This document shows positions 4,718-33,319 of a stretch of DNA of 64,000 nucleotides, piece after piece. Position 1 is the stretch's first letter; every line of letters starts with the position of its first letter. The position numbers and the translations under genes are program-made. Source of the DNA: an uncultured Alphaproteobacteria bacterium. GTDB lineage: Bacteria > Pseudomonadota > Alphaproteobacteria > JAJTHO01 > G963706365. The notes beneath the pieces were generated by a model, which searched no databases, was not told where the DNA came from, and saw nothing but the letters and a program-made list of their open reading frames with translations. The stretch lies in NCBI GenBank assembly GCA_963706365.1, contig OY970150.1, positions 293,364-357,363 on the forward strand, in the 5' to 3' direction.

Positions 4718-4736
4718 TATCTTTTTCTACATCTGT

Positions 4737-9060: not shown

Positions 9061-9098
9061 TTATCAAAAGCGCTCAAAGGCTAGAGAGGGTTGAGCGC

Positions 9099-9974: not shown

Positions 9975-10052
9975 TTTTAACCAACCGTCAGGGATCCTAG
10001 AGAACGTATCTACTTCCTGACTGTCTAAACGTTTGGGTCCACCTCATTATTT

Positions 10053-11667: not shown

Positions 11668-11720
11668 TTAGAGGCTAAAACTTGATTTAGCCGCCTGACA
11701 CAGTTCGTGGAACACTCTCC

Positions 11721-11860
11721 AACGATAGTAAGAAAAGTTGTAAGGCACTGGAAAATGACTTGGCTAATATTGAAAGTGAAATGGCTGTTTTATTACCACA
11801 AAAAGATGCCATAGGTAAGAACGTTGCCCTAGGTATTGCGGGCTGGTTTTTAATAGTACT
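11721..11860 (+). pseudogene. Internal fragment of a small membrane/lipoprotein gene
   Basis: Open frame NDSKKSCKALENDLANIESEMAVLLPQKDAIGKNVALGIAGWFLIV beginning right at the IS256 end, with no start codon. Confidence 0.45.
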
Positions 11861-13121
11861 GATTATATGTCATTTGACAGGTTTTCTTTATTTTAAATGC
11901 TAGGATTTATCATCCAAACATTTCGCCTGTTTTCATTTTCTATTATCATATCTCCCTCACACGGAATAAGATAATTGTGTGAGGTAAGAATACTAATGAT
12001 TTTATAGGCAGCTCCGCTCTTTATTTTCATGCGTTGCTGGAAATTAGCCGGAGAGATATAGGGATACTCCCACTTATTTTTAAGCCAGTTTATTGCCCGT
12101 TCTGCCAGTATAATATCTGGATCAGTAAATTTAGCCTCCAAAATTCGTACCGCTTCGTCAATGTAATGATTGCCTAAAACGATGGCTCTTTGCATCATGT
12201 CTTTAGTGATAAAAGTTGCGTTTATATCGTCAAACAATGTTAATACCCCGGCAATTCTAACGGTGTTTTCCATAATCTTACTGGCAAAGGCTGCAATATT
12301 TTCAAATTCACCAAACTGCAATTGCCCTGTTTCTACAGAGTTATAAAAATGTACCAATGCTTCTTCCGCACCCTTGTCCATTTCCAAAGTACGCGGGTTT
12401 AGATCACTGCGTGTACCTTTTTTGATAGGCAGGGGTTTATCAAGGATACTTTTTAGGCATGTATTAAAGGCCTCTAAGGCCGCTGTATCGGGTCTGTAAC
12501 CTGCTTTAACGGTGCGTGTACCTTTCATACTTTCAGGAAATACAGTTAGGTATCGGGAAAGGAAGCCTTGGCCGTCTAGCAGACTGTCACCAAATACCTG
12601 CTGGGCAATAATTGGTTGCATCATTAAGTGAACAGTTAAGCGTTTATCACTAATAAACTCCATGCCATCAGTTGAGCGTGTACGGTCAATCTGGCTTGCA
12701 TCCCATAGCTTTGACATACCCGTAATAGTTTTCAATTTATTGTCTTTATGCATTGCATGGCCGCCAAATAGTGTGCCTGCCTCATCCATAAAAATACCAG
12801 CGGAGGGTTGTGCTTTTGAAAGCTGCTTAAAAATACCCTCAAAGGTAAAATCGTTTGTTAGTAGTTTGGGTTCAAGCGGTGCTGCTGGCACTACTCCTAA
12901 TGCGTCAAGGGCAGCTTCAATATCGTCATCAGATTTTAAAGCCGCTTTTTCTGCCATTTTGTAGGCCGACTGTTTATTGGTATGAGCGCGAGCATCAATT
13001 TTATACTGGGCTTGAAGTTCACGCTCTTTTTCACGCACAGCCTTTAATGTGAGGTGGACCCAATTGACTAGACAGGTAGAAAGTAAAAACGTTCTCTAGT
13101 ATCCCTGACGGTTGGTTAAAA

Positions 13122-13997
13122 TCAGGCGGCTAATTTTGCTGTTCTGATTATTTGGTTGTTTATTAGGTTAGTATTTTTGTTGCGACTTGCAAGATAAAAT
13201 TCATTGGGTGTTTTATAGTGCAGAGCTTGGTGTAAGCGTCTTTGATTGTAGTAGCTAAACCATTGCCTTAAAACATGTTTTAAGGCGGATCCTGTGTTAG
13301 GTGCATGGATATAAATGCATTCGTGTTTAACAGAACGCCAAAGCCGCTCTATAAAAATATTATCCAGATATCTGCCACGTCCATCCATGGATATTGTGAT
13401 ATTGGTGTTTAACAGGGTGCTGGTAAACGCCTCACTGGTAAACTGGCTACCCTGATCTGTGTTAAAGATTTCCGGCTGGCCATAAAGCTCTAAGGCTTCC
13501 TGTAAAGCCTCTACACAAAAGTCAGCATCCATCACATTAGAAAGCCGCCAAGCTAGTACTTTACGGCTATACCAGTCCATGATCACCACCAGATACAGAA
13601 AGCCTTTCTGCATGGGAATGTAGGTTATATCCGCGCACCATACCTGATTAGCCCTGTTGATATCCAGCCCCCTTAGCAGGTATGGATAAATCTTATGAGC
13701 CGGATGTGGCGCACTGGTATTAGGCTTTGCGTAGATAGCCGCAATACCCAAATCCCGCATCAGCCGCTGTACTTTCTTGCGATTGATAGCATAGTCCTGG
13801 CGGCGTAAAACCATTGTCATGCGGCGACTGCCAAGGCTCGGATCCTCCAGAAAACACTGGTCTATTAATCGCAGTAATTTCAAATCTTCTGGGGGTATCG
13901 GTTTGGGCTTGTAATAGACGCTACTACGGCTGATTGACAACAAGCGACACTTGGCCGACAAACTCAATTTTGGCGTTTCTATTTTAATTATCTTCAT
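13122..13997 (-). CDS. IS3 OrfB DDE transposase
   Basis: Core protein sequence identical to 9099..9974. Confidence 0.95.
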   Translation of the reverse strand: MKIIKIETPKLSLSAKCRLLSISRSSVYYKPKPIPPEDLKLLRLIDQCFLEDPSLGSRRMTMVLRRQDYAINRKKVQRLMRDLGIAAIYAKPNTSAPHPAHKIYPYLLRGLDINRANQVWCADITYIPMQKGFLYLVVIMDWYSRKVLAWRLSNVMDADFCVEALQEALELYGQPEIFNTDQGSQFTSEAFTSTLLNTNITISMDGRGRYLDNIFIERLWRSVKHECIYIHAPNTGSALKHVLRQWFSYYNQRRLHQALHYKTPNEFYLASRNKNTNLINNQIIRTAKLAA

Positions 13998-14011
13998 GCG
14001 CTCAACCCTCT

Positions 14012-14305
14012 CTAGCCTTTGAGCGCTTTGGACAAAAAATCCCGCTCCACTGTCAGCTCACCCACCTTGGCATATAGCTGTTGTAGCAGCACTTCCTGCT
14101 CACCCTTGTCTGAATGCCGCTTCTCCCTTGGCTCAAACACCAATGCCGCACCCTGCAATAACTCCCGACGCCACTGGTTGATGGACGTGCTATGAATCCC
14201 ATATTCACTCGATAGCTGCGCGATCGTCTTCTCGCCTCGAATAGCTGCCATAGCCACCCTAGCTTTAAATTCTGGCTTATATCTTTTCTGTTTACTCTTA
14301 CTCAT
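14012..14305 (-). CDS. IS3 OrfA
   Basis: HTH OrfA ending 'ELTVERDFLSKALKG'. Confidence 0.93.
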   Translation of the reverse strand: MSKSKQKRYKPEFKARVAMAAIRGEKTIAQLSSEYGIHSTSINQWRRELLQGAALVFEPREKRHSDKGEQEVLLQQLYAKVGELTVERDFLSKALKG

Positions 14306-14706
14306 ATTCTGCTCCTTACTAGCATTCTGCCAGAGGACGCTAGAGCTCTTTCCACTGTCTAATTTTTGGGGTCCACCTCAATGCTTTACTATCCACGCTA
14401 CTTTTACGTTCTCCACTGGCAGCAATAGTGGCTAGGTATAACGATATAGGTACTGTCTTATCAGCAAATGGAATATAAACGTCTGCATGGCCTTGTACCG
14501 CCAATGAAGTTGCTGCCAATAAATAATGGGCGCATGTAGCTATTGGTGCCATTACAACTTCATGCATATTTTTAACAGCGACACCCAATGTTTCACCTAA
14601 TGCCTCATAAGGATAATCTAACGCTTTCGGCGTTTCTGGCCTTAATGGTATGGGGGCTGAGCGATCATAAGCTATTGTTTCGTTGAATTGGCTATCTAAT
14701 GTGTTA

Positions 14707-15664
14707 TTATCCATTAGACTGCTCCATGAGTAAGTCGTTGAAGTCTTTATTGGGGGGGCGACATAGCAATGCGAACGCTGCGCCCTTCAATATCTAATCG
14801 TTCGGCTAATTTGCGAGCAGCTTTTTTGCCTGCACTATCATTATCAGTAACAATAATAATTTCTCTAGCTAATGATGGTAAAATAGCTTTACTCAAATTA
14901 CCACTGGTTAAAGCAGACCATGTAGCAACACCCGTTAATTGCATATAGCTAAGACAAGTTTCCAGCCCTTCACCTACTGCCATTCTCGTTGCGGGTGGGC
15001 ACAGCTGGACTAATCCACCGTTTAGACTTCGTAACATCATTTTTGGCGATGAAATATTGGCTTTCCCCAATCCATCATGCCTTAAATAAGTGCGGTGCAG
15101 CGCAGTAACCTTATTTGTATTAGAGCAACGCGCAGAGGCTAATAATGCGGGGTAATTCTGTTGTGTAGCAACATAGCGATGGCTGGAGCTGAATTTTAGA
15201 TCGCTTGGTAAGTCAATCGTAATACCGCGTGATTGTAGGTATTTGTCACCTAAGCTATCTTTTATAACCACTGCACTATTTAAAAGCTTATTAACAAAAT
15301 CCAGCCTAGCTTGGTCAGTTGTTTTTGGCGCATTAACTTTAGGAACTTTAGAGTGTTTAGAGTGGGGCATAGGTGAAAAATCACTTTGTTGTGTTAACGC
15401 CAACGCCGCTTGATAGTAGGTTATTTTATGTAAATAAGAATATAGGCTTATAAAATCACCCCCTTTATCACCAATAGCAAAATCTGCCCATTTGCCATTT
15501 TTATTAACGGAAAATGAGCCAATATTATTATCGCGTTTAGTAGGGTTGGTGGCTTTATATTCCACCGCCTCCCAACGGCCATTCGGAAGCCATCGTTTCA
15601 AGTGAATATAAGAAGCACAGGCGATATCATTATTAATCGCCTTAAAATCAAGATGGCTAATCAT
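14707..15664 (-). pseudogene. Toprim primase with a +1 frameshift near the 3' end
   Basis: 'YLQSRGI', 'ALHRTYL', 'VGEGLET', 'TDNDSAG'; deleting one base from the G7 run at 14752-14758 restores the conserved 'KDFNDLL' end. Confidence 0.75.
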
Positions 15665-15869
15665 TTTGACCTCCCTTAAAGCTGGCAATATACGCGTGAA
15701 TATCCTCTGCCCGCCATGCGGTAATATTGGGGCTTAATTTAATAGGTTCAGGAAAAGTACCAGCTTTTACCATATTCCAAAAAGTCGTTTTGCCGTATGG
15801 AATATATCGCTGTACAACGGGTAGGCGTACAAAACCTGTTTTAGGTAGGTTAGTTAAACTATCATTCAT
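15657..15869 (-). CDS. AlpA-family regulator/excisionase
   Basis: 'GFVRLPVV...GKTTFWNMVKAGTFPEPIKLSPNITAWRAEDI'. Confidence 0.92.
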   Translation of the reverse strand: MNDSLTNLPKTGFVRLPVVQRYIPYGKTTFWNMVKAGTFPEPIKLSPNITAWRAEDIHAYIASFKGGQND

Positions 15870-15930
15870 TTGAATTCCTTTGTGTTCGGTTAAACTCAAA
15901 GGATTTTTAGACGCGATAAAATAGCTTGTG

Positions 15931-15962
15931 ACCGAATTCGGTTATGCCAAACCGAATTCGGT
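15931..15962. promoter_or_regulatory. Tandem palindromic operator-like sites ACCGAATTCGGT x2 upstream of alpA
   Basis: Perfect 12-bp palindromes at 15931-15942 and 15951-15962 (20-bp period). Confidence 0.65.
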
Positions 15963-16749
15963 TTATGTTTCAGGGTCAGGCATAGTGATAGAAACATGCT
16001 GAAACGCTAATTTTAGCCACTTTCGTATTGTATCATCACTGATATCAATACCCCAACTGCTGAGAGTATCAGATAACTCTTTAGGTATTGGAGACTTTCT
16101 TGCTTCTGGGTCATAGCCATAACCATCAATTGCCATACCAATTATCAGCTTCATTAAGCTTTCTTTTTCCCTCGTATGTAGTGGTTTGCTAAATTTACGA
16201 TCTTTAATATTAGGATGCCTACTTGAACAAAAAATATAGTTTTCAAGGTCTTCTATTCTTTTCTCAGGTGAATCTTCGGGGTTGCTCACAGGAACATGTA
16301 CAGGCTCCCCCCCTCTTCTTTACTACAGCGTCGAAGGCAGCACCCCATACCTCTTGCTCAGATTCAGAATATTCCTCGTACCAATCGCCATATATATTAA
16401 TACCTCTTTCGCTTAGCCATTTTGCAAGATCCTCTATATTTACGAATGTAGAAGTAGTGACAATACAATCCTCTAAGTTCCTTCGAACTCTAACAGTTTT
16501 TAGGGAGTTTTTGTCAATTCCAAAACATATAGATTTATTCAATTTCTTAATCTCTGACTGTAGAGACTTAACCAAACGGGGGTTTTTGAGTGTGTATTCT
16601 GCCTCATGGTCAGGTAATTGATAGTCAAGGTGACCTTCTAAGCATAAAATCTTTGCTACAAGCTCAGCTGCTTCATCAATATTTAGTTGATATATACCAA
16701 AATCTTTTAGCTCCCAAAACGGGTATTCATCATCTAAATTGTTTTACAT
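15963..16749 (-). pseudogene. Putative regulator with C-terminal HTH-like domain; nonsense at codon 2 and frameshift at C7 run 16307-16313
   Basis: Minus strand ATG TAA AAC AAT TTA... continues open into ORF 16264..16575; removing one G joins it to 15963..16289 ('ISDDTIRKWLK'). Confidence 0.6.
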
Positions 16750-16764
16750 AAAATTCTCTTATTT

Positions 16765-17943
16765 TTATTGCTTGGCCGTATCTAAATAATTTGCCCCATC
16801 CTGCATCATTACAGCGCGCTGATCCAAAAATTGCGCCCTGTCGTATGCTTCACCAAGGGAGTGTGGTTTTTTGTGTGCCAGTTGAAGGTCTGCTACTTCA
16901 TGTGGATAGCCTAACTTCTCTTGTAGCGCTGTTAGGGCTAAGGCTCTAAAGCCGTGGCCTGTCATGGTGCCTTTATAACCCATGCGATATAGGGCAGTGA
17001 GTAGCGTATTCTCACATATGGGCTGCTTTGGTTTGTTCGGACTTGCAAACAACCATTCACGATAGCCGTTTATTACTTGCAGCTGTTCTATAACTTTTAA
17101 AGCCTGTTTTGAAAGGGGAACAGTATGTTTACGGCGCATTTTGCTATACTCAACAGGAACAATCCAAACTTTCTTCTCAAAATCAAATTGGTCTATTTTT
17201 GCATGGCGTAATTCGTGCGTGCGAACAAATGTTAAAAACATCAATTCAAAAGCTAATCTTGTTATTTTAGATAATTGCGCATTTTGTAAATCGTTTAGCA
17301 GTTTTGATATTTGCTGCGGGTCAATGGCTGCGTGATGCTTTACGGGTCTAGTTTTTAAAGCACCTTTAAAGGTTGTGGTAATATCGTAATCTGCACGACC
17401 TGTTTGAATAGCGTATCTAAAAATTTGCCCACAATATTGATTGCAACGCTTTGAAACCTCTAAAGCGCCTCTAGCTTCTATTCTACGCATAACTTCTAAC
17501 AAGATAGGCGAAGTAACATCTCTAATGGGCAGCTTGCCAATTTCAGGGAATATATCGGCTTCTAACCGTGTTAGAATAGTTTTAGCATGTTTAAGTTGCC
17601 ACTCCGGCTGCTTATGTAAATGCCATTCCCTAGCAATGGCTTCAAAAGTGTTTGCACTATTCAATCGCTTTTCACGTTTTTCTTCTTTTTTGGCAGCAGA
17701 AGGGTCAATGTCTTTATCGAGTAATTTTCTGGCGGCAAGACGTTGTTCACGGGCTTCCTTTAATGAGGTTTGGGGGTATGTTCCAAAGGCTAATAGTTTT
17801 TCTACCCCCAAGTGCCTGTATTTATACCGCCAATATTTAGAGCCCTTAGGCGTTATTTGCAGGTAAAGCCCTGCGCCATCGCTTAATTTATAAGGCTTTT
17901 CTCTGGTTTCGGCTGTTTTGCATTGTCTATCATTTAGCTTCAT
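16765..17943 (-). CDS. P4-like tyrosine integrase
   Basis: 'KPYKLSDGAGLYL...GSKYWRYKYR' arm-binding domain, 'TFVRTHE', 'HGFR', 'QLAH', 'AYDR'. Confidence 0.95.
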   Translation of the reverse strand: MKLNDRQCKTAETREKPYKLSDGAGLYLQITPKGSKYWRYKYRHLGVEKLLAFGTYPQTSLKEAREQRLAARKLLDKDIDPSAAKKEEKREKRLNSANTFEAIAREWHLHKQPEWQLKHAKTILTRLEADIFPEIGKLPIRDVTSPILLEVMRRIEARGALEVSKRCNQYCGQIFRYAIQTGRADYDITTTFKGALKTRPVKHHAAIDPQQISKLLNDLQNAQLSKITRLAFELMFLTFVRTHELRHAKIDQFDFEKKVWIVPVEYSKMRRKHTVPLSKQALKVIEQLQVINGYREWLFASPNKPKQPICENTLLTALYRMGYKGTMTGHGFRALALTALQEKLGYPHEVADLQLAHKKPHSLGEAYDRAQFLDQRAVMMQDGANYLDTAKQ

Positions 17944-17992
17944 GGGGGTATCAAAATTGTTTGTTTTCAACAGTACCCCCATAAGTACCCCC
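17941..17992. repeat. Probable arm-type integrase binding repeats (TACCCCC)
   Basis: AGTACCCCC twice in direct orientation plus an inverted GGGGGTA at the integrase start. Confidence 0.55.
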
Positions 17993-18104: not shown

Positions 18105-18153
18105 ATGGCTCCCCGGGAGGGATTCGAACCCCCGACCAATTGATTAACAGTCA
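18105..18153 (-). repeat. att site: 49-bp duplicate of the tRNA-Asn 3' part
   Basis: Identical to 33319-33367 (ATGGCTCCCCGGGAGGGATTCGAACCCCCGACCAATTGATTAACAGTCA). Confidence 0.96.
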
Positions 18154-18270
18154 CATGGTCTTTGTATTTACTAAGTCTTACATTTCTATATAAAGCTATA
18201 CATAACAAGGGTTTTAGGGCTATAAAGCACCTTGTATGATTTATCAAAATATACCTAATTTCACCTATAT

Positions 18271-18302
18271 TGCGGCACGAATGCGGCACCAGTGCGGCAC
18301 CA
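18271..18302 (+). repeat. TGCGGCAC x3 with 11-bp period (arm-type sites); two more at 33253 and 33264
   Basis: ATGCGGCACCAGTGCGGCACCA occurs at 18281-18302 and 33252-33273. Confidence 0.8.
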
Positions 18303-18333
18303 GATTCTTTTTAGAAAGCGCAGGAATACAGGC

Positions 18334-19485
18334 ATGAGCAATACAATTAACTTTACCAAAGCGGCACTAAAAGCATTGCCATTGCCTAACAGCGGGCGTG
18401 ACTATTATAAGGATACCAAGGAAAAGGGTTTGTCGCTGGCGATTACCAAGGCGGGTACGATTACCTTTTTTGTGCGAAAACGGGTGCAGGGAAAAGACGA
18501 GCGCATTACCATTGGCACGTTTCCTGAATTTAGTATTGAGAATGCCCGTAAGCAGGCGATGAAAGTTAAGGCTGATATTGCCACGGGTATTGACCCTAGC
18601 TTTGAGAAAAAACGCCTGAAAGCTGATATTTTATTTGGCGATATGTTTGCGGAATATTTGGAGAAATACGCCAAGCTGCACAAGCAATCGTGGCAGTATG
18701 ATGAACGCATTATCACACGGCTGGCGGGGCATTTATTTAAACGCAAGGCATCGCAAATCACCCGAACAGATTGGATGCAACTGCATGAGGAAGTGGGCAA
18801 GAATAATGGCGAATATAGTGCAAACCGTCTGATAACCCTTGTTTGTGTGGTGTATAATAAGGCGATTGATTGGGATTGGGCGGGCACGAACCCTGCTAGC
18901 CGTATTAAGAAGTTTAAAGAGAAAAGCCGCGAACGATTTTTGCGAAAGGATGAAGTGGCGGGCTTTTTTCAGGCGTTGGCGTTAGAAGAAAACGAGACGG
19001 CACGGGATTATATTATGGCCTCGCTTTTAACGGGCGCGCGGAAAACCAATGTGCTGGAAATGCGGTGGGATCAAGTTAATTTTAACCTGAAAGAATGGCG
19101 TATTCCCAAAACCAAGAATGGTGAAATGCAAACGGTGCCGTTATCGGATACGTTGATTGCCTTGCTGGAAAAACGGCGGGAAATTTCTGAAAGTGAATTT
19201 GTGTTTGAAGGTACAGGCGCAACGGGGCATTTGGCCGACCCCCGCAAGGCTTGGGGGCGTGTGTTGAAACGAGCGGGCATTGAAGATTTGCGCTTGCATG
19301 ATTTGCGGCGCACATTAGGCAGCTGGATGGCGGCCAATGGCGTGACGACGGCCATTATTGGCAAAACGTTGGCGCACAAAAGTGTGCAGGCGACCAAGGT
19401 TTATGAACGGTTGGATATTGACCCGGTGCGGGAATCTATGATGGTGGCGGAGAAGGCTTTGTTTGAGGTTGGGGGTGTGAATTGA
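18334..19485 (+). CDS. Tyrosine recombinase/integrase
   Basis: Arm-binding N-terminus, 'TGARKTN', 'KTKNG', 'HDLRR', 'LAHKS', 'VYER'. Confidence 0.95.
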   Translation: MSNTINFTKAALKALPLPNSGRDYYKDTKEKGLSLAITKAGTITFFVRKRVQGKDERITIGTFPEFSIENARKQAMKVKADIATGIDPSFEKKRLKADILFGDMFAEYLEKYAKLHKQSWQYDERIITRLAGHLFKRKASQITRTDWMQLHEEVGKNNGEYSANRLITLVCVVYNKAIDWDWAGTNPASRIKKFKEKSRERFLRKDEVAGFFQALALEENETARDYIMASLLTGARKTNVLEMRWDQVNFNLKEWRIPKTKNGEMQTVPLSDTLIALLEKRREISESEFVFEGTGATGHLADPRKAWGRVLKRAGIEDLRLHDLRRTLGSWMAANGVTTAIIGKTLAHKSVQATKVYERLDIDPVRESMMVAEKALFEVGGVN

Positions 19486-19517
19486 CGGGATGAACTTGGC
19501 ATCCTATTAAAGAAGTC

Positions 19518-20330
19518 ATGAAGTATGAAATTGCACAAATTATAACTACTTTTGTAGGATTTGGCGTTCTAGTGTATCAGGTGCACAAAGGTTTTGAGAA
19601 TAGCTTTGCGCTAAAGAACCGAGAAATAAAGGATGCTTACCATAAGGAGCTACACGAGAAAATTGAGATAGCGATAAGCAACCTTCATGAAACCACAAGT
19701 ACTATGTCATCTTGCCTTCTAAGCATCAAAATAGCTTTTGGTAATTATGCAGACATGCAAGCTTCAGGGATTGCTAATCCTATTATGTCAGTTGATAGCT
19801 CAGAACAAGTTAGATTGAAAAGTGCAGAAATGGGCGAAGCCATTTTTCAAGTTTTAGGAACTATTGAAAAATACGAAATAGTGGAGCCAAAACTGAATAT
19901 TTTTAAAATCGCATTCTCGTCATATCATCATGACTATAGTAAAATATTTCATGGTAGATTATACAGAAATTTGCTGCCTGTATTGCCATTCTCTTTAAGT
20001 GATGGCACTTGCAAACCATTCGTCATGCCGAACGAAGAACGTTTAAAAACTTTAATAAAAGATTTAGACGCTGCATATGAAAGTATTTCTAACATTAAGA
20101 TGGTTATCTACGATTTACGCATTGAAATACAGAACTTGCTCCTTTCTGAATTATTTGACAGAAAATTAGAGCTTAGAAAACCGATTGACCCCAAAATTAA
20201 AGTGATTTCAAGTCAAAGTTATGACGAGTTAAATCAGTATTTTGAGAAAGAAACGAATTATGGAAAAAGCAATTCAGATGCGGTGAATAGAGTTTTAGAA
20301 GATTTTATTAAACAAGATACGAACCTTTAA
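19518..20330 (+). CDS. Hypothetical protein with N-terminal TM helix (AT-rich cargo)
   Basis: 270-aa ORF with hydrophobic residues ~5-23; no motif recognised. Confidence 0.75.
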   Translation: MKYEIAQIITTFVGFGVLVYQVHKGFENSFALKNREIKDAYHKELHEKIEIAISNLHETTSTMSSCLLSIKIAFGNYADMQASGIANPIMSVDSSEQVRLKSAEMGEAIFQVLGTIEKYEIVEPKLNIFKIAFSSYHHDYSKIFHGRLYRNLLPVLPFSLSDGTCKPFVMPNEERLKTLIKDLDAAYESISNIKMVIYDLRIEIQNLLLSELFDRKLELRKPIDPKIKVISSQSYDELNQYFEKETNYGKSNSDAVNRVLEDFIKQDTNL

Positions 20331-20380
20331 TAGTAAAAGTAACTATTAAATAAAAACATATTATCCTTTAATAATAAATC

Positions 20381-21562
20381 ATGCTATTAAAGGATATGCG
20401 CAAACAACCACCGCCTAAATTAACAGGCACCTACCACAGCACCACTGCCGCTGGCGAAACGGTAAAAGCGTTTGTACCAAAACCGTTACCCATTGAACCT
20501 GCACTGGATTTAACTGCCTTGCAACCCCGCCTTGAAAAAGCAACGGCGGCATTGGGGCGGTTGGATGGGGTGACGGCATCGTTGCCGAGTGTGGAATTGC
20601 TGATTTATTTTTATATTCGCAAAGAGGCATTGTTATCGTCACAAATTGAAGGCACGCAATCATCGTTTGATGATTTGTTGTTGTATGAAAATAACGCGGT
20701 GCCGTCTGTGCCCATTGATGATGTAGAGGAGGTTTCACATTATGTGGCGGCGTTGAATCATGGCTTGCAGCGGATGCAGGAAGGGTTTCCGTTATCGTTG
20801 CGGTTGATACGAGAAATGCACGGTATTTTATTGCGGGGTGGGCGTGGCAGAACCAAAGCCCCTGGCGAATTTCGCACAAGCCAAAACTGGATTGGCGGCA
20901 CCCGACCAAGTAATGCTATATTTGTGCCGCCTCCGCCAAATAAGGTGATGGACTGCCTATCGAACCTAGAGCATTATCTACATAACGAGCAAGAACCCGC
21001 CCTGCTAAAAGCCGCCATCGCCCATGTGCAATTTGAAACCATTCACCCGTTTTTAGATGGCAACGGGCGTATGGGGCGGTTGTTGATTACGTTGTTATTG
21101 TGTGAACAAGGCTTGCTAAAATCGCCTGTGCTGTATTTAAGTTTGTTTTTAAAACAACATCGCCAAGCCTATTATGAAATGCTGGATGGGGTGCGCTATC
21201 AAGGCGGCAATGGAGAGGGATGGCTTAGGTGGCTAGATTTCTTCTTAGAAGGCGTAGAAAAAACCGCGACCGACGCCGCCCAAAAAGCCACCGCTATTCA
21301 GGCACTCTTTAAAGAAGATGTTGCCAAAATTGAAACGTTGAAACGGGCAAAAACATCGGCAGTGAGATTGTTTGAATATCTACAACGGCGGGCATTATGC
21401 CAAATTCCCAATGCGGCAGCTGATTTAGGTTTGACGCAACCAACAGTCACCGCCGCCCTGCAACATTTGGTAGCACTAGGGATTGCCCAAGAGGCATCGG
21501 GGAAACAACGAGATCGAGTTTTTGTTTATGGGGGGTATGTGGGGTTGTTGGGTGATGGTTAG
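20381..21562 (+). CDS. Fic-family protein
   Basis: Canonical HPFLDGNGRMGR, N-terminal SSQIEG auto-inhibitory motif, C-terminal HTH-like region. Confidence 0.95.
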   Translation: MLLKDMRKQPPPKLTGTYHSTTAAGETVKAFVPKPLPIEPALDLTALQPRLEKATAALGRLDGVTASLPSVELLIYFYIRKEALLSSQIEGTQSSFDDLLLYENNAVPSVPIDDVEEVSHYVAALNHGLQRMQEGFPLSLRLIREMHGILLRGGRGRTKAPGEFRTSQNWIGGTRPSNAIFVPPPPNKVMDCLSNLEHYLHNEQEPALLKAAIAHVQFETIHPFLDGNGRMGRLLITLLLCEQGLLKSPVLYLSLFLKQHRQAYYEMLDGVRYQGGNGEGWLRWLDFFLEGVEKTATDAAQKATAIQALFKEDVAKIETLKRAKTSAVRLFEYLQRRALCQIPNAAADLGLTQPTVTAALQHLVALGIAQEASGKQRDRVFVYGGYVGLLGDG

Positions 21563-22020
21563 AGATGCCGCTTCATTACAAAAGCAACTTTGCCGTATTC
21601 CTCATTTTCTATACCGTGTAAATCATGTGAGATATCAAACGATTTCCCTAACTTACTTGACCATACACCGTTATCTAGCTGCTTGGCGGCATGTGTTGGT
21701 GCTGAACCTAGTGAAAAAATGGCTATTTTTTCAAAATCTTGTTCTAAATCTTCACTGGCACAAAGTTTGTAGCCTAATTTTTCAAAGGCAGCTTGGAAAC
21801 ATGGCAGTGTCTCAACTCTTAAAGATATAGGCCAATAGGCAAAACCATTAATATCAGGCCACCACCACCGTGTTTCATCACCGCCTGCATAGGCAATACA
21901 GTTATAAGATTCATCTTGCGGGCTGGTAATCCTTAAAATACTACGATCAATTTTAGGGTATTTTTGCACCACTAAATTTTTAACACGCTCTATTTGTTCT
22001 GATTGTACCATTCTATCCAT
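21559..22020 (-). CDS. Putative papain-like Cys/His hydrolase (DUF7689-like)
   Basis: 'TSP..ESYNCIAYA', 'WWWP', 'THAAKQ', 'WSSKLG', 'YG'. Confidence 0.65.
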   Translation of the reverse strand: MDRMVQSEQIERVKNLVVQKYPKIDRSILRITSPQDESYNCIAYAGGDETRWWWPDINGFAYWPISLRVETLPCFQAAFEKLGYKLCASEDLEQDFEKIAIFSLGSAPTHAAKQLDNGVWSSKLGKSFDISHDLHGIENEEYGKVAFVMKRHL

Positions 22021-22391
22021 GCGTTACACATAGCCATTATATTCCCGCGATCTTTATCTTGTACAGGATTTTCTTTCGTAATAACGGCTAGTGCCATAAA
22101 TAGTAAATCTGGTTGGTTTTCGATTTCTTCAACAATTAACTTTACGACAGGTTGCCCCATATCAACAATGTCTTTAAAGTATTGGCTTTTCATCATAGCC
22201 GTTGGATTAGAGCTGTAAAGTGTTTCTAAACGCCAATTTTTTACAGCTTCTTGAAAAACGTCAACATAATCTTTTTGTGAAACAGGGTAGTGCACAGCGT
22301 TGGGAGCACTGGAAGAGACAGGTCTGATACTTTTGTAATAGCCTGTTGGTTCTGAGAAATTAATACTGCTCTTTTTCAAGTTGTTCTGCAT
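21990..22391 (-). CDS. Conserved hypothetical helical protein, possible antitoxin/inhibitor
   Basis: 'WRLETLYSS', 'IVDMGQPVVKLI', 'ALAVITKENPV', 'AWIEW'; overlaps both neighbours. Confidence 0.7.
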   Translation of the reverse strand: MQNNLKKSSINFSEPTGYYKSIRPVSSSAPNAVHYPVSQKDYVDVFQEAVKNWRLETLYSSNPTAMMKSQYFKDIVDMGQPVVKLIVEEIENQPDLLFMALAVITKENPVQDKDRGNIMAMCNAWIEWYNQNK

Positions 22392-22707
22392 CTTCTATAA
22401 CCTTTCCTAACCATTTATGTATTGATTTTGCAATATCTAAACGCAGAAAAATATCTGCTTCCATTTCACGTACAATACTGTGGCGTGATGTTACCTGCAC
22501 TAAGTCGCTTAACCTGCCATCATCTGAGACTTCATGAATTTCTCGCTTGGGAATGGCGCCCCTTTCACTGTATAATGAAATATGAACATGACCATTTGGC
22601 GTAACACCACCTACGGCACCATCAGCGCGTAACGAGCGAAATGAAGTGCTTTTGATATAATCAAAAATGACGTTCTGTTTTATCTCTAGCTCATCTTTTT
22701 CTTGCAT
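22360..22707 (-). CDS. Hypothetical protein, DUF3467-like
   Basis: 'FRSLRADGAVGGVTPNGHVHISLYSER', 'REMEADIFLRLDIAKSIHKWL'. Confidence 0.6.
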   Translation of the reverse strand: MQEKDELEIKQNVIFDYIKSTSFRSLRADGAVGGVTPNGHVHISLYSERGAIPKREIHEVSDDGRLSDLVQVTSRHSIVREMEADIFLRLDIAKSIHKWLGKVIEDAEQLEKEQY

Positions 22708-22859
22708 AATCTATATCGCTGTTTTTATTCTACTATAGTTTTTTTGTATTAAACTGCAATATAATAAACATAGCGTAAATATTACATATTTTAAACCGTT
22801 GTAGAAAAAATTTCCCCCAACCCCTCCCCATTTACCAAACTCTATGAGAGTATTTGTAG

Positions 22860-23123
22860 ATGGACACAACTTTACCAACAGAAAATTTGCGGGATGCGTT
22901 GTTGGCGCATTCACCAGCACCGAAAAGCACAACCCTCACCCCCGAAACCACCTTACTAAGCCGCCCTGAAACCGCGGCAATGATAGGCGTAAAGCCTAAT
23001 ACATTAGCGGTATGGGAAAGTAACAAGCGTTATAATCTGCCTGTTACCAAAGTGGGTAGGCTGGCAAAATATCGCCTTTCGGATATTCAGGCGTTCCTAG
23101 AAAACAATGGGGAGGGGGCATAA
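22860..23123 (+). CDS. HTH_17/excisionase-like DNA-binding protein
   Basis: 'LLSRPETAAMIGVKPNTLAVW...KVGRLAKYRLSDIQAFL'. Confidence 0.9.
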   Translation: MDTTLPTENLRDALLAHSPAPKSTTLTPETTLLSRPETAAMIGVKPNTLAVWESNKRYNLPVTKVGRLAKYRLSDIQAFLENNGEGA

Positions 23124-23124
23124 G

Positions 23125-23469
23125 ATGCACAATAGACTTCCTTTTAAAGAAGTGGCCGAACGGGCGACTTCTTATCACACCGCTATTTTAAACCGTTTAT
23201 TACCCGATGGTAAACTGATTGGTGTGGAATTTATGGCACGCAACCCGAACCGTTGCGATGGCAAAACAGGCAGTTTCTCGTTTAACATTAGAACAGGAAA
23301 ATGGGCAGACTTTGCCACCGATGACAAGGGTGGTGATATTATTTCGCTTTATGCTTATCTTGTTGGTTGTTCACAAAAGGATGCTTTATTTGACGTGGCG
23401 AAAATGATTGGCTTTGAGATTCCTGCCTATCGAGAATCATTTAATAAAGGAGGGCATCACTATGCGTAG
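23125..23469 (+). CDS. Stand-alone primase N-terminal (zinc-finger-like) domain protein
   Basis: 'NPNRCDGKTGSFSFNIRTGKWADFATDDKGGDIISLYAYL', homologous to the N-terminus of the element 1 primase. Confidence 0.75.
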   Translation: MHNRLPFKEVAERATSYHTAILNRLLPDGKLIGVEFMARNPNRCDGKTGSFSFNIRTGKWADFATDDKGGDIISLYAYLVGCSQKDALFDVAKMIGFEIPAYRESFNKGGHHYA

Positions 23470-25984
23470 TAACACCCTCGAGAAAATTCAATTTAACGAT
23501 AACATTACAGCCCCTATTACACAAGAAGAACAGCAGTTTGTAGCCGATAAAACTACTGGGAAAACAATAGATAAAGCGGATAAAGAACCCGTCTTTCCTG
23601 TGCCGGATACAGCCTCAAGTATTGATAGCTTTGCTGTAAAAAAATGGGGTGGTAAGCCTGATGTGCTTTATCCTTATCATAATGCTGATGGTGCGGTGAT
23701 GCTGTATATTGCCCGTTGGCACAATGATGGCGATAAGATCATTCGGCCATTGAGCTATTGTAATCTTGGCAATGGCCAGTTTGGCTGGGCTATAAAAGGT
23801 ATGGGCGGTGTAGACAATCGCCCGTTATATCGCCTGCCGGAGATTCTTAACAACCCTGATAAACCCGTATTAATTTGTGAGGGCGAGAAAACGGCGGATT
23901 CTGCGCAACGGCTATTCCCTGATTATATTTGTACTACCCCAATGCAGGGTGCGCAGTCTGCTAATAAAACAGACTGGCAGCCATTACAGGGGCGCAAGAT
24001 TGTTATTGCCCCGGATTGCGATGATGCGGGGATGCAATTTGCTGATACGGTTTATGATCTGGTTACAGCGGAAAGCGTGCAAATGCTGGCCACCTGGAAG
24101 CTGGGTAAAGGTTGTTTTATTAATGGCGACTGGTGCGAGCATACCAATATTGCCGAAAAATATGATTTGGCCGATGCGGAAGAAGATGGCTGGACAGCCG
24201 AGCGTATTAACCGCACCCCCGATTTGCTGGAAGCTTATATCACAACCGAAGCCTTAACAGCAATTACCAAAAACCACGGGGAGCAGTATAGAGTGAATGG
24301 CAGTGGGGTGTATCAATGGTGCGTTGTAGAAAGGGCGAAGGTAAAACAGCCCGCTATTAACGACTGGATTTGGCAATGTTCTTACCTAATTGTAAAGTGC
24401 CGGTGCCGCGATGGAAACAGTGGCAATTGGGGTTATTTAGTTGAACTAATAGATGCCGATGGTAAACGAAAAGAATGCACCTTACCGGCGGATATAATCA
24501 ACGATCCCAAACCGTATATTAAAACCTTGCTGAACTTAGGTTTGAAAATGAAGCCCTATGCCCATGCAACTATTGCCAGCTATATTCAATCCACCACCAC
24601 GAAAAAGCGGGCGACTGATGTTTATAAAGTGGGTTGGCATACCATTGATAACAAGCAGGTTTATGTATTTCCGGGGAAAGTTTATGGAAGCCCGAAAAAC
24701 CCTGTATTGCTCGATATTAAAGGCGGAATACAGCCGGAACCATTTACCGTGAAAGGCAACCTGCAACAGTGGAATGAAACCATCGGCAAATATCTGCCAC
24801 AAAACCATCGTTTAATTGTTGTTTCCTGCATAGGGCTTGCCGCCACTATTTTAGGGCTACAGGAAGAAGCGGAAAACTTTGGTATTCATTTTAAAGGCGG
24901 TTCCAGTATGGGCAAAACCACCGCCTTGCATGTGGCGAAAAGTGTTATGGGCAACAAAATAAACCCGTGGCGCACGACGGATAATGCGGCGGAAGGTTTA
25001 GCTGCGCTGCACCATCACAATTTATTAATGCTAGATGAGCTAAGCCAAGTGGAAGGCCGCGCCGCCGATCAAATGATTTATATGCTGGGTAATGGGCAAG
25101 GCAAAGCGAGAGCCAACCGTAGCGGCGAAGCACGGGGTATTATAGACTTCAAAACCCTATTCTTAAGCACCGGTGAAATTTCTTTATCGGAAAAAATAGC
25201 CGAATGCGGTAAACGCACTAAGGCCGGGCAAGCGGTGCGGATGCTGGAAATTGAAGCGGATGCCGAAACGGGGCACGGTATTTTTAACAGTATACATGAC
25301 CAACCATCAGCAGCGCAGTTATCGGATTACCTAAAGCAACAAGCCACGAAACATAGTGGCGCGGTGCTGGATCATTTTTTGACTAAGCTGTTAAAAAACC
25401 CTGATAATGCATTGTTGTCTATTAAAGCAAAACAGCGGGAATGGCTAGACGATCACTGCGAACCGGATGCCAATGGACAAGTAAAACGTGTTGCTAGAAA
25501 CATGGCGTTGATTGCTGCCACGGGTGAAATAGCCATTGAATGGGGTTGTTTTGCGGCATTGCAACAAGATGCTGCCATGCGTGCCATAGCCGTTCTATTC
25601 TATGACTGGTACAATAGTAATAAAGCCGATGATCCGCAGGAAGTTACTGCTACTATTAAAGCCCTACGACAGTTTTTAGAACAACATGGTAGTAGTAGAT
25701 TTGAAACTTGGGGTGGTGATAGTGAGGAGCCGCACAAAACAATTAATCGCGCAGGTTTTAGAAAGCCCGTAGGTGGTGCTTATCAATACTATTTGTTCAA
25801 AGGCACTTTTAGAACAGAAATTTGCCAAGGCGGTGATCCGGTAGTTATTGCAAGAACACTAGCGGATAAGGGTATTTTTATAAAAGATAAGAAACACAAA
25901 ACCGCCCCATCAACAACTATTCCCAACTATGGCACAGATAGAATGTACCATATCAATCCTGATTTTATGAAAGGTAGTGATTAA
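23462..25984 (+). CDS. Toprim primase-DUF927 helicase fusion
   Basis: 'RPLYRL', 'ICEGEKTAD', 'PDCDDAG', P-loop 'GGSSMGKTT', 'WRTTDNAAEG', 'LDEL', 'LSTGE'; RBS AAGGAGG upstream of ATG 23462. Confidence 0.9.
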   Translation: MRSNTLEKIQFNDNITAPITQEEQQFVADKTTGKTIDKADKEPVFPVPDTASSIDSFAVKKWGGKPDVLYPYHNADGAVMLYIARWHNDGDKIIRPLSYCNLGNGQFGWAIKGMGGVDNRPLYRLPEILNNPDKPVLICEGEKTADSAQRLFPDYICTTPMQGAQSANKTDWQPLQGRKIVIAPDCDDAGMQFADTVYDLVTAESVQMLATWKLGKGCFINGDWCEHTNIAEKYDLADAEEDGWTAERINRTPDLLEAYITTEALTAITKNHGEQYRVNGSGVYQWCVVERAKVKQPAINDWIWQCSYLIVKCRCRDGNSGNWGYLVELIDADGKRKECTLPADIINDPKPYIKTLLNLGLKMKPYAHATIASYIQSTTTKKRATDVYKVGWHTIDNKQVYVFPGKVYGSPKNPVLLDIKGGIQPEPFTVKGNLQQWNETIGKYLPQNHRLIVVSCIGLAATILGLQEEAENFGIHFKGGSSMGKTTALHVAKSVMGNKINPWRTTDNAAEGLAALHHHNLLMLDELSQVEGRAADQMIYMLGNGQGKARANRSGEARGIIDFKTLFLSTGEISLSEKIAECGKRTKAGQAVRMLEIEADAETGHGIFNSIHDQPSAAQLSDYLKQQATKHSGAVLDHFLTKLLKNPDNALLSIKAKQREWLDDHCEPDANGQVKRVARNMALIAATGEIAIEWGCFAALQQDAAMRAIAVLFYDWYNSNKADDPQEVTATIKALRQFLEQHGSSRFETWGGDSEEPHKTINRAGFRKPVGGAYQYYLFKGTFRTEICQGGDPVVIARTLADKGIFIKDKKHKTAPSTTIPNYGTDRMYHINPDFMKGSD

Positions 25985-27079: not shown

Positions 27080-30000
27080 ATGACTGTTCTAAAATCTAAT
27101 GCGCCACTGTTTTCTGACATTGTTACAGAAACAGTATTGGAAACACCATTACAAAAACTATTAAACCATTTTCGTAACCATGCCCAAACGGAACGGGAAA
27201 AGGGTACATATTTTGAGGAGCTTATCCTGAAATATTTACAAACGGAACCGCAGTATAAAAACCTTTATCAATCGGTGCAAACCTATGCTCATTGGGCAAA
27301 AGCACAGGGAAAGTCGCAGCAAGATGATGGCATTGATTTGGTTGCTATTACAACAGGTGGCGAAACTCATGCAATACAGTGCAAGCTATATGATCAAGGC
27401 TACACATTACAAAAACGCGACATTGATAGCTTTTTCACAGCCAGCGGCAAAGCCCCGTTTACTAATCGTATCATTGTTAGCACCACAAATAAATGGTCGC
27501 CACACGCGGAAAACGCCTTAATTGACCAAACCCCGCCTGTTACCAAAATTGATTTATTTGCATTGGAAGAAAGTGTTATTGACTGGGCGCAATATCAACC
27601 TGATACCACTGTAAAAACCAAAGCGAAATACCCTCTTAAATGCCATCAAAAACGTGCTTTGAATGCCATAGATAAAGGTTTTGAAACGGCCAATCGTGGC
27701 AAAATGATTATGGCTTGTGGCACGGGGAAAACCTTTACTAGTCTCAAGATTGCTGAACAGCAGGCGGGTGTAGGCAAGAATGTACTATTTTTAGTGCCTA
27801 GCCTTTCCCTATTATCTCAAACCTTAACCGAATGGACACAGCAAAGCGACATCCCTCTAAACAGCTTTGCCGTGTGTTCTGATAATGATGTAGGGAAAAA
27901 GAAAAGTGGGAATGATGACGCCGTGCAAACGCTTATTCATGAATTATCATACCCTGCCACCACCAATGCAGAAAGCCTGTATAAAGCTACACAGAACCGC
28001 AGCCAGCCTAATGCCATGACCGTGGTATTTTCAACCTATCATTCCCTTGCCACTATCCACGAAGCGCAAAAATTAGGGCTTGCTGATTTTGACCTTATCA
28101 TTTGCGATGAAGCCCACCGCACCACGGGCGCAACCTTTAGTGGGGATGACGAAAGCAGCTTTGTGCGTATTCACGATAACGATTATGTTGCAGGGCATAA
28201 ACGGTTGTATATGACCGCAACCCCCCGCATTTATGGCAACGATGCCAAAATAAAAGCCGAGGTGGAAAGCATTGAGTTGTGTTCCATGGACGACCCCGCC
28301 AAATTTGGTAAAACCCTGTTCACCATCAACTTTGCTGAGGCGGTGGAAAAAGGCTTGCTAGTGGATTACAAGGTGCTGGTGTTGGCGGTGGATGAAATGC
28401 ACATCAACCAACGTTTGCAAAAATTATTATCCGATGAAAATAATTCCTTAAAAGTAGATGACGCCGCCCGCATTGTGGGGTGTTGGAAAGCATTGTCTAT
28501 GCAGGGTATTGAGGGCGCAACCCCCATGCAACGGGCGGTGGCGTTTTGTGACAAGATAGAAATCAAAACCCGTGGCAACGTAAGTAGCAAGCAAATTGCC
28601 GCCATGTTCCAAACAGTAGTAGAAGTCTATCAAGAAGCGGAGAACGATAGCACCCAATTAACCTGCGAAGTACAACACGTTGACGGCAGCATGAACGCCA
28701 GCCAAAAGGAAGAAAAACTAGCATGGTTAAGGGCTGAAACCGCTGAGAACACATGCCGTATTGTTAGTAATGTAAAATGTTTATCGGAAGGTGTAGACGT
28801 GCCTACCCTTGATGCAGTGTTATTTCTGACCCCTAAAACTTCACAGGTGGATGTGGTGCAATCAGTGGGGCGCATCATGCGCAATGCCCCGAATAAGGAA
28901 TTGGGGTATGTGATATTACCCGTGGTTATTCCCCACGGCATGGAAGCCCACGACGCCCTTGATAACAACCAGAATTATAAGGTGGTATGGGACGTGCTAA
29001 ATGCCTTGCGTTCCCACGATGAACGCCTGAATGCCAAAATTAACCAAGCCGAATTGGAAGGCAAAAGCATTGCCAATATTGAGGTTATTCCCGTTACCAA
29101 CACCCTGAACCCGAAAATTAAACGCCCATCTGATAAAGACAGCACCCTAAACAGTGCTAGAACAGGCTATGGCATTGGCGAGAAAAACCCCGATGCCCCC
29201 ACCCAGCAATTAGAAATAGAATTTGAAATTGGCGATATTGAACGGGCATTATATGCCAAAATCGTGAAAAAATGCGGGCAGCGGTTATATTGGGAAGATT
29301 GGGCAAAAGACATTGCCAACATCGCCCAAACCCACATTAACCGCATCACCACCATTGTGCAAAACCCTGAAAACACGGTTGAAGCCGCCGCCTTTAACGG
29401 CTTTGCCGGTGAACTGCGAGACGACCTAAACCCCAGCATTTCAGACGATGAAGTGATTGAAATGTTGGCACAGCACCTCATCACCAAACCCGTGTTTGAT
29501 GCGCTGTTTCAACACGATAATTTTGCCGCCAACAACCCCGTTTCCCAAGCCATGCAAGATGTGCTGGATGTGTTGCAAACCCACAATTTGCATAAAGAAG
29601 CCGACACCCTAGAACAATTCTATGAAAGCGTGCGCCGCCGTGTGGCGGGCATTAACACCGCCGAAGGCAAGCAAAAGATTATTGTGCAGTTATACGATAA
29701 ATTTTTCCGTAATGCCTTCCCCCGCCTTACCGAACGCCTTGGCATTGTTTACACCCCTGTTGAGGTGGTGGATTTCATTATTCATTCGGTAAACGACGTA
29801 TTGCAAAATGAATTTGGTGAAACATTAGGCAGCCAAGGCGTGCATATTATTGACCCCTTCACCGGCACCGGCACGTTTATCACCCGCATGTTGCAAAGCG
29901 GCCTCATCACCCCCGAACAACTGCCCCATAAATACGACCACGAAATTCATGCCAACGAAATTGTGTTGCTGGCCTATTACATCGCCGCCATTAATATTGA

Positions 30001-33136: not shown

Positions 33137-33319
33137 GGGAATAAACCGCTTTCTAATTTTTCCCAATATTAAAAAACAATGCTTAAAAAAGTGATAAAGC
33201 AAAACCAATCACAATAGCGGTACTGTATTATTATAAAGAATACTGACTCAAATGCGGCACCAGTGCGGCACCAAGAATTTTTAAGTTGAACCATAATCAA
33301 CGTAAGTCATTGAAAAATA

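Follow-up and report, generated by a model that had tools for sequence, protein, structure and literature searches.

A mobile three-gene cassette with a putative papain-like cysteine hydrolase (DUF7689) and a strictly paired partner: a candidate toxin-antitoxin or defense module in an uncultured alphaproteobacterium

The trio and its protein families

In a 64,000-nucleotide (nt) stretch of contig OY970150.1 from an uncultured Alphaproteobacteria bacterium (GenBank assembly GCA_963706365.1, positions 293,364 to 357,363 of the forward strand), referred to here as the window and numbered from its own first letter, we have analyzed three small open reading frames (ORFs) that we call ORF1, ORF2 and ORF3 in their order of reading (Table 1). 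A first-pass annotation, made from the letters alone, had singled out this trio as a candidate new toxin-antitoxin or anti-phage system. The three minus-strand ORFs of 115, 133 and 153 residues are indeed present and overlap each other, by 32 nt between ORF1 and ORF2 and by 31 nt between ORF2 and ORF3. They run opposite to the flanking genes for the integrase, SoFic, the AlpA-like helix-turn-helix (HTH) protein and the primase-helicase, all of which are on the plus strand, and they are more AT-rich, with a GC fraction of 0.37-0.40 across the trio vs. 0.45-0.49 across SoFic and the primase, as had been judged by eye; an even lower value (0.33-0.35) was found at 19500-20500. We regard these as genuine genes rather than chance ORFs, because ORF3 scores high against a Pfam family (below) and homologues of ORF1 and ORF2 recur with their gene order preserved across many unrelated genomes. 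No hydrophobic segment was detected in any of the three proteins (maximal 19-residue Kyte-Doolittle mean of 1.0 or less; 0.63 for ORF3) and all three are acidic, with an isoelectric point (pI) of 5.5 for ORF1, which together argue for soluble, cytoplasmic proteins.

The intergenic region 5' of ORF1 is tentatively presumed to hold the promoter of the trio. An imperfect 25-nt inverted repeat (22717-22775, 76% complementary) lies just 5' of the ORF1 start and could be an operator or a chance product of AT-rich DNA. A promoter and terminator scan did not find a sigma-70-like site in this region (22708-22859), and the overall number of sites in the scan was no more than in shuffled sequence.

ORF3 matched the Pfam family DUF7689 (PF24738) across the entire profile (positions 1-118 of 118), with an E value of 1.5e-36 and 126.1 bits vs. 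a cut-off of 22.6, and a search of the genome gave this result again. A word-indexed search returned 185 homologues at E <= 0.001, nearly all of them metagenomic "hypothetical proteins" of ~145 residues, the closest apart from its own entry being 60% identical. Residues Y39, N40, C41, H110, W120, S122, K123, G125 and H132 are invariant (35/35 aligned sequences), and the YNC, THAA and WSSKLG motifs on which the first-pass annotation had based its call of a papain-like Cys/His protein are located in this last gene of the trio. With the homologue alignment as input, AlphaFold2 gave a model with a mean predicted local distance difference test (pLDDT) of 93.1 and a predicted template modeling score (pTM) of 0.86, in which C41 opens a helix (41-45) while H110 and H132 lie within strands 107-114 and 129-132, respectively.

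Comparison of this model with the PDB by Foldseek produced weak matches only, with an NlpC/P60 endopeptidase on top (E 0.05). In structure comparison by VIA-align, run exhaustively and then as a second look, all 50 listed rows in each belonged to the papain-like clan, comprising NlpC/P60, CHAP, staphopain, C39, AvrPphB/YopT-like and Josephin proteins, Tae3/Tse1, toxin 9l5u and a CdiA-CT toxin. The best of these was 3h41 (Z 6.4, root-mean-square deviation 3.6, 92 residues aligned), and 9l5u_B reached Z 5.4 (3.1, 95 residues), Z-scores that singly fall under the VIA-align background of 7-8 for best matches. Given matches that are uniform in class and extend over residues 29-153, and invariant Cys and His residues in canonical positions, a putative papain/NlpC-P60-like Cys-His-His hydrolase is a reasonable call for ORF3; the earlier assignment thus holds as a modeled fold class with invariant Cys41, His110 and His132. 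We also considered that ORF3 might be a cell-wall hydrolase, secreted or periplasmic, that comes with an immunity protein; this was ruled out, as hydrophobic or signal segments are absent.

Other searches with the trio were less informative. Neither the three proteins nor their profiles found a meaningful match by sequence among PDB chains (best E 0.05-0.6, to unrelated proteins), and no match to the trio was found in PHROGs or NCBIfam. Scanning genome contigs with a single sequence turned up no relative; the alignment-based scan described below did find loci. In the literature searched, we found nothing under the names DUF7689 or TIGR04255, the latter being a family that we introduce below.

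ORF1 represents a large family without a name. Its profile, run against 1.84 billion cluster representatives, retrieved 2,784 proteins at E <= 0.001, of which 1,805 passed E <= 1e-10; most are 110-150 residues long. ORF1 itself had no match in Pfam, NCBIfam, PHROGs or PADLOC. Pseudomonadota seldom carry the family, which was present in 2/401 sampled genomes, that of the window included. The AlphaFold2 model (pLDDT 81, pTM 0.54) comprises a six-stranded beta-sheet and a long C-terminal helix; Foldseek found nothing for it in the PDB at E <= 0.001, and the weak fold matches were to a COMM domain (Z 4.8, the best) and to Pur-alpha/PC4 proteins (Z 3.3-3.8). Among the viral structures of BFVD, one uncharacterized Siphoviridae protein matched (E 5.9e-5), which yields no function.

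Two properties that the first-pass annotation had offered for ORF1 were not supported by this analysis. The label DUF3467-like was not borne out, since the Pfam model of that family (PF11950) matched 0/9 ORF1-family members by hmmscan (limit E 10) and nothing in the whole genome of the window at E <= 10, and profile-profile alignment by hhalign with 25 DUF3467 proteins from Pseudomonadota genomes reached a probability of 10.8% (P 0.0028) that involved the last strand and C-terminal helix only; an ESM Atlas cluster at rank 25 (score 0.85), where DUF3467 is seen in 11% of the proteins, is a weak lead and does not amount to membership. As for a chaperone, no SecB-like fold was present among the 50 listed matches of the ORF1 model.

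The ORF2-DUF7689 pair and its exchangeable heads

The conserved core of the trio is the ORF2-ORF3 pair, which the first-pass annotation had overlooked. One genome per species was scanned with a DUF7689 alignment, yielding at least 592 confirmed stretches, of which 80 loci were kept; these span Planctomycetota, Cyanobacteriota, Nitrospirota, Acidobacteriota, Chlorobiota, Bacteroidota, bacteria of the candidate phyla radiation and several proteobacterial groups. With ORF2 detected by tblastn and then by a hidden Markov model built from its matches, an ORF2-family gene was found directly upstream of DUF7689 on the same strand in 79/80 genome loci, the exception (L027) starting at a contig end, and likewise in 31 of the 32 viral contigs of IMG/VR that carry DUF7689. 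The two genes mostly overlap by 4-40 nt. Since ORF2 stands directly upstream in 79/80 loci, we consider ORF2-DUF7689 to be a conserved unit, and the gene-neighborhood check that had been proposed for the trio came out, for this pair, with homologues that co-occur in conserved order.

ORF2 itself has a conserved core of ~90 residues (roughly 46-133) preceded by a variable N-terminal stretch of ~45 residues, with W53, S61, G79, W125 and W128 invariant and G116 near-invariant. In most clades the homologues end in a conserved Gly-Tyr-x-Trp-type tail, which the clade of the window's ORF2 lacks. No Pfam model covers the family (0 meaningful matches in 40 members), and in the best ESM-Atlas cluster for ORF2 the commonest taxon is Uroviricota.

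We then have a modeled counterpart to this pairing. Modeling of ORF3 with ORF2, both chains given as alignments, produced a complex with ipSAE scores of 0.87, 0.88 and 0.89 in runs 1, 2 and 3, while the best of 3 controls scored 0.00; the partner pLDDT was 76-77, and at least 90% of contacts were common to the runs. The calibration mark was reached by 58/80 solved complexes and 2/110 mismatched pairs, a yardstick that is only rough here given our author-made alignments. On ORF3, the interface comprises residues 40-42 (N40 and C41), 50-62 (a Trp-rich loop), 109-111 (H110) and 123-127; on ORF2, it comprises residues 57-64, including the invariant S61, and 115-119, including the near-invariant G116. 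The model supports binding of ORF2 to ORF3 with the most conserved ORF2 loops placed on the catalytic residues, and both the binding and the capping of the active site are modeled only. The earlier notion that ORF2 is the partner of ORF3 thus gained from an obligate neighborhood (79/80 loci) as well as from a predicted position over the active site.

The pair is sporadic and mobile. Of 60 genomes related to that of the window at the level of order or class, one had a DUF7689 match, and a weak one (E 9.8e-10), and five genomes from the loci carry 14, 8, 7, 4 and 2 matches, several of which are fragments or contain internal stops. In a Planctomycetaceae genome, the one with 14 matches, three tandem ORF2-DUF7689 pairs are separated by a repeated spacer (locus L010, 4645-7817). 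Upstream neighbors are mixed, including housekeeping genes, an IS1-type transposase, HEPN, DUF29 and others, with TIGR04255 as the sole recurrent family, and the largest cluster of downstream neighbors accounts for no more than 4/74. A patchy distribution, multiple copies with some in decay, and residence on mobile elements are what toxin-antitoxin or defense modules usually show.

The position of ORF1 at the head of the pair is less strict and, in our opinion, more revealing. Starting from ORF1 in metagenome loci, ORF2 came directly next in 62/80 and DUF7689 in 58/80, the 4 loci of difference being cut by contig ends. Starting from DUF7689 in genome loci, ORF1 was found upstream in 6/80, and in 19 of the 76 upstream neighbors scanned the gene was TIGR04255, an NCBIfam family of ~250 residues described as "sporadically distributed", whose gene as a rule runs 4 nt into the start of ORF2; in the viral contigs with DUF7689, ORF1 was upstream in 3/32 and TIGR04255 in 18/32. 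ORF1 and TIGR04255 are unrelated as judged by hhalign (probability 0.3%) and hmmsearch (nothing). In a quick IQ-TREE tree of ORF3, the window groups with loci L002, L003 and L004, all with ORF1 (SH-aLRT 96), and the remaining ORF1 loci are scattered among those with TIGR04255.

The same heads also precede pairs other than ORF2-DUF7689. Among the 18 ORF1 loci without ORF2, 5-6 had no room downstream and about 11 carried other overlapping pairs, of which two types recur: 1) a ~200-residue protein with a WDGYG-type motif followed by a ~133-residue protein; 2) a related protein of ~190-210 residues followed by a ~145-residue protein with an AHSEVR-type motif. No Pfam family was found for any of these alternative proteins, middle or tail. 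Unnamed middle-tail pairs behind ORF1 or TIGR04255 heads were noticed at L135, L168, L173, L181 and L183, at L166/L167 and at L190-L219, the middle proteins bearing WDGYG- or WNGHG-type motifs and the tails being ~133 residues long, or ~145 residues long with an AHSEVR-type motif.

To the TIGR04255 side, a Pseudomonadota sample contained the gene in 28/301 genomes. In 30 TIGR04255 loci taken, the TIGR04255 model located the gene in 26, and ORF2/DUF7689 was found in 0/30; several different overlapping pairs follow the head instead, two of which are pairs also headed by ORF1. Of these, the L167-type pair corresponds to the most frequent TIGR04255 pair (middle E 8.8e-22, tail E 1.6e-14) and the L181-type pair to the one of L214 (E 1.9e-9 and 7.8e-8). 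In all, three distinct middle-tail pairs were found behind both ORF1 and TIGR04255 heads. As both head the same three pairs, the two look interchangeable, and from these arrangements ORF1 looks like a swappable head that TIGR04255 can replace, a feature that had escaped the first-pass annotation.

The linkage of ORF1 to ORF2 that had been assumed earlier is supported by gene order and by fusions. In protein P0182, ORF1 (4-119) and ORF2 (161-264, E 1.7e-40) are joined in frame in a single chain of 264 residues, and an ORF at 97-792 of locus L186 is an apparent ORF1-ORF2 fusion with one ambiguous base (one X). These fusions suggest that the head works through the middle protein. P0215 joins ORF1 to a C-terminal stretch with a by-eye resemblance to the middle protein of L176.

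The island that carries the trio

The trio is part of an island of ~15.2 kb bounded by a 57-nt direct repeat, the two copies of which are 95% identical, the right one forming the 3' part of a tRNA-Asn gene (Table 1).

Table 1. Features of the trio and of the island around it, in window coordinates
Feature	Position	Strand	Length	Remarks
Left att-like direct repeat	18105-18161			copy of the 3' part of tRNA-Asn
Tyrosine integrase	18292-19485	+		
SoFic (Fic-domain defense gene)	20381-21562	+		PADLOC PDLC03963, E 1.9e-119; Pfam Fic_N, Fic
ORF3	21559-22020	-	153 aa	DUF7689; putative papain/NlpC-P60-like cysteine hydrolase; candidate effector/toxin
ORF2	21990-22391	-	133 aa	unnamed family; candidate neutralizer or adaptor
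ORF1	22360-22707	-	115 aa	large unnamed family; head/accessory gene
ORF1-AlpA intergenic region	22708-22859			tentatively presumed promoter region of the trio
AlpA-like HTH	22860-23123	+		
DUF927/Toprim primase-helicase	23408-25984	+		
Type ISP (IIG) restriction-modification enzyme	27080-31969		1,629 aa	
TIR/ThsB-like protein	31956-32894			
tRNA-Asn with right att-like repeat	33320-33394	-		repeat (33319-33375) = its 3' part

With att-like repeats bounding the integrase, SoFic, Type ISP and TIR genes, the trio belongs to an integrative element and has three or more recognized defense genes as neighbors, in keeping with the cargo position that had been assigned to it. SoFic converges on ORF3, their gene ends overlapping by 4 nt, and is treated here as context outside the cassette. 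The company of SoFic, Type ISP and TIR fits a defense role of the trio, by association only.

Several further observations concern the island and its surroundings. It has the appearance of a compact defense island on a P4-like element integrated at tRNA-Asn. A 23-nt repeat, AATGCGGCACCAGTGCGGCACCA, occurs near both of its ends (18269-18302 and 33251-33273) and may be an arm site of the integrase. Between the integrase and SoFic, a 270-residue ORF (19518-20330) occupies the most AT-rich stretch (GC 0.33-0.35) as uncharacterized cargo, with no significant match in Pfam, PADLOC, NCBIfam or PHROGs. Back to back with the integrase of the island stands another tyrosine integrase (16765-17982, minus strand), and a tRNA-Lys lies at 4642-4717; this suggests an adjacent second integrated element in the stretch 4642-17982, the "element 1" of the first-pass annotation.

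Proposed function and comparison with known systems

We favor the reading that the trio is a widespread, horizontally mobile conflict cassette comprising a toxin-like effector, its neutralizer and an accessory protein, to which we assign a probability of about 60%. It builds on the observed gene structure, protein families and fold class with its invariant residues, together with the strict pairing, the exchange of heads, the fusions, the mobility and the number of copies. In particular, the two small genes of the pair are adjacent and co-directional, mostly overlap and stay together in 79/80 genome loci and 31/32 viral contigs, as is typical of type II toxin-antitoxin systems. In outline, the earlier proposal of a papain-like candidate effector, a predicted binding partner and a linked third gene belonging to no named system has largely stood, with the exception of its DUF3467 label. 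Within the favored reading, we would bet slightly against a phage-defense role as opposed to plain addiction.

In terms of mechanism, we postulate that ORF3 would be a cytoplasmic papain/NlpC-P60-like cysteine hydrolase effector, with Cys41 as nucleophile, His110 as base and His132 as third residue. ORF2, translationally coupled and encoded just upstream, would be its dedicated neutralizer, keeping ORF3 inactive by means of the invariant Ser61 loop and an Arg-Gly loop (Arg115-Gly116) laid over the catalytic Cys/His. ORF1 would be an accessory head that acts through ORF2 as a regulator, stabilizer or trigger sensor, exchangeable for a TIGR04255 protein or absent altogether. Upon loss of the element or arrival of a phage-derived trigger, free ORF3 might cleave or deacylate an essential cytoplasmic target, with cell arrest as the outcome. 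It is for toxicity, trigger, target and the role of ORF1 that we infer rather than observe.

A number of findings weigh against this reading: 1) neither head gene (ORF1 or TIGR04255) was detected in roughly 50/80 genome loci, so ORF1 is dispensable for the core pair; 2) the structural matches of ORF3, at Z 6.4 or below, do not singly rise above the background mentioned earlier; 3) ORF2 has no HTH, ribbon-helix-helix, AbrB or Phd match in Pfam (40 members at E <= 0.01; the window's ORF2 at E <= 0.1) and, lacking a recognizable DNA-binding domain, is unlike classical type II antitoxins; 4) the modeled fold of ORF1 is without a clear match; 5) the ORF1 family is acidic (median pI 5.6), which speaks against a DNA-binding regulator and by which a basic DNA-binding repressor, a candidate role that we had entertained for ORF1, was ruled out; 6) PADLOC-DB v2.0.0, its PDC candidates included, has no match to the trio of the window (E <= 0.1) or of L003 (E <= 0.01), a result that also agrees with the earlier statement that no named system fits; 7) the ipSAE values express model confidence and were obtained with author-made alignments; 8) invariant interface residues, such as S61 and G116 of ORF2, are also compatible with ORF2 being a substrate or an obligate subunit.

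The last of these points leads to the rival readings, as the complex model cannot separate an inhibitor from a substrate or a subunit. If ORF2 were a subunit, ORF2-ORF3 would be an obligate heteromeric enzyme, or an enzyme with its activating subunit, with no part in conflict and acting in the cytoplasm, for instance, as an amidase, an acyltransferase or in transglutaminase-type modification, ORF1 being auxiliary. The location of the most conserved ORF2 residues, S61 and G116, at the modeled active-site interface is what one would expect of a site-completing subunit; many hydrolases of the NlpC/P60 superfamily are non-toxic; and the lack of a DNA-binding domain in ORF2 is in line with this as well. 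The distribution of the pair, however, is atypical of housekeeping enzymes, as evidenced by its sporadic spread (1/60 relatives), up to 14 matches per genome with some decayed, the tandem triplication, the presence on viral contigs and on an island of defense genes, and the swapping of the entire pair behind common heads. We therefore hold the heteromeric enzyme to be unlikely.

If ORF2 were a substrate, it could be a pro-form that ORF3 processes at the Ser-Ser loop, with processed ORF2, possibly delivered by ORF1, serving as the active agent or signal. In the model, the invariant loop 57-64 of ORF2 sits in the catalytic cleft and touches N40 and C41; the Gly-Tyr-x-Trp-type tail is conserved in most clades; and there is a precedent in Cpe1-Cpi1, where immunity is reported to act by competitive substrate binding (PMC12136450). 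On the other hand, the tail is missing from the very clade of the window's ORF2, no sign of export or of a downstream receptor was seen, with no hydrophobic or signal segment in any trio protein, and other middle and tail families replace both genes jointly behind the same heads, which effector-neutralizer pairs would explain more simply. Processing of ORF2 is, in our judgment, more improbable still.

The least probable of the rivals is that the cassette is the mobile element's own weapon, used for anti-defense, competition among satellites and prophages or superinfection exclusion: the 32 viral contigs with DUF7689 (31 with ORF2), the ORF2 cluster with Uroviricota as commonest taxon and the integrase/primase island of the window are compatible with it, but most of the 80 genome loci have an ordinary chromosomal context with housekeeping neighbors, prophages and satellites often carry defense or toxin-antitoxin cargo so that carriage does not tell these roles apart, and anti-defense proteins are, to our knowledge, rarely strictly paired modules of an enzyme and a capping partner.

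Returning to the effector-neutralizer cassette, we offer a wider conjecture that goes well beyond it and that we consider doubtful, although attractive. The trio may be part of a large, hitherto unrecognized superfamily of modular head-adaptor-effector cassettes in which ORF1 and TIGR04255 heads are exchanged before exchangeable pairs; the head would sense phage and act on the adaptor to free the effector, making this a new plug-in class of abortive infection on satellites, prophages and chromosomes of many phyla.

If ORF3 proves to be toxic and to be neutralized by ORF2, a papain-like cysteine hydrolase would join the short list of enzymatic toxins of chromosomal toxin-antitoxin modules, and ORF2 would be a new antitoxin family that appears to cap an active site. 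The occurrence of two unrelated heads before the same three pairs implies a combinatorial cassette family that occurs on a defense island, in prophages and in no fewer than 592 stretches of the species-representative genomes scanned. The cassette is also an entry point into families with no assigned function, namely DUF7689, TIGR04255 and two without a Pfam or NCBIfam model.

Among known systems, the tripartite toxin-antitoxin modules omega-epsilon-zeta and PaaR-PaaA-ParE follow the order accessory, neutralizer, toxin, with a neutralizer that lacks a DNA-binding domain, and their accessory proteins omega and PaaR are small basic DNA-binding repressors. The trio shares the gene order and a candidate neutralizer of this kind, as well as an accessory that is separable and now and then fused to the neutralizer (P0182 and, apparently, the L186 ORF); many modular defense systems are built on a comparable logic. 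It departs from them in all three protein families, and ORF1 is acidic, composed of a beta-sheet and a helix, and replaceable by an unrelated protein of 250 residues (TIGR04255). Toxin-antitoxin-chaperone (TAC) systems, the analogy drawn by the first-pass annotation, consist of HigBA and a SecB-like chaperone, the third protein acting through the antitoxin. The trio is likewise tripartite, and its third protein would act through the antitoxin; unlike in TAC, the accessory gene is upstream rather than downstream, neither head gene was detected in roughly 50/80 genome loci, and the 50 listed fold matches of ORF1 include no SecB-like structure.

With regard to the enzyme, NlpC/P60 peptidoglycan endopeptidases that have proteinaceous inhibitors, LytE-IseA (8i2e) and Tae3-Tai3 (4hz9), are among the best structural matches to ORF3 (Z 5.2-6.4), are of the Cys-His-His type and are inhibited by a partner protein. 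They have no sequence similarity to ORF3, and they act on the cell wall outside the cytoplasm, with signal peptides or secretion partners, whereas ORF2 and ORF3 have no signal segment. In polymorphic toxin/immunity cassettes the toxin domain also occurs at the C-terminus of large secreted or trafficked proteins and the immunity gene is downstream; the partner gene of DUF7689 is upstream. A close parallel is Cpe1-Cpi1 (9l5u). Cpe1 is the C-terminal domain of polymorphic toxins delivered by type VI secretion or contact-dependent inhibition systems, and Cpi1 is reported to neutralize it by competitive substrate binding, not by occlusion of the active site (PMC12136450). Cpe1 and, as predicted, ORF3 are small papain-like Cys/His enzymes of the bacterial cytoplasm, each with a dedicated neutralizing protein, a candidate one for ORF3, encoded next to it. 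The differences are as follows: 1) DUF7689 proteins stand alone at ~145 residues, no homologue of 269-2000 residues and thus no longer fused form having been found, which is weak evidence; 2) Cpe1 and ORF3 have no sequence relation; 3) ORF2 is modeled directly on the catalytic residues, whereas Cpi1 is reported to leave the active site unoccluded; 4) the neutralizer gene of the trio is upstream, and a third gene is present.

As regards candidate systems, PADLOC's PDC-M32 has no match to the trio, and one alternative middle protein weakly touches its component PDC-M32A (E 0.003). The TIGR04255 cassettes share the architecture of the trio, in that they comprise a head followed by two small overlapping downstream genes, and have alternative pairs in common with ORF1, the head in the window being unrelated to theirs (hhalign probability 0.3%). 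In kind, the trio looks like a variation on the toxin-antitoxin or defense-cassette theme, made up of families without assigned function, in which the interchangeable heads were unanticipated.

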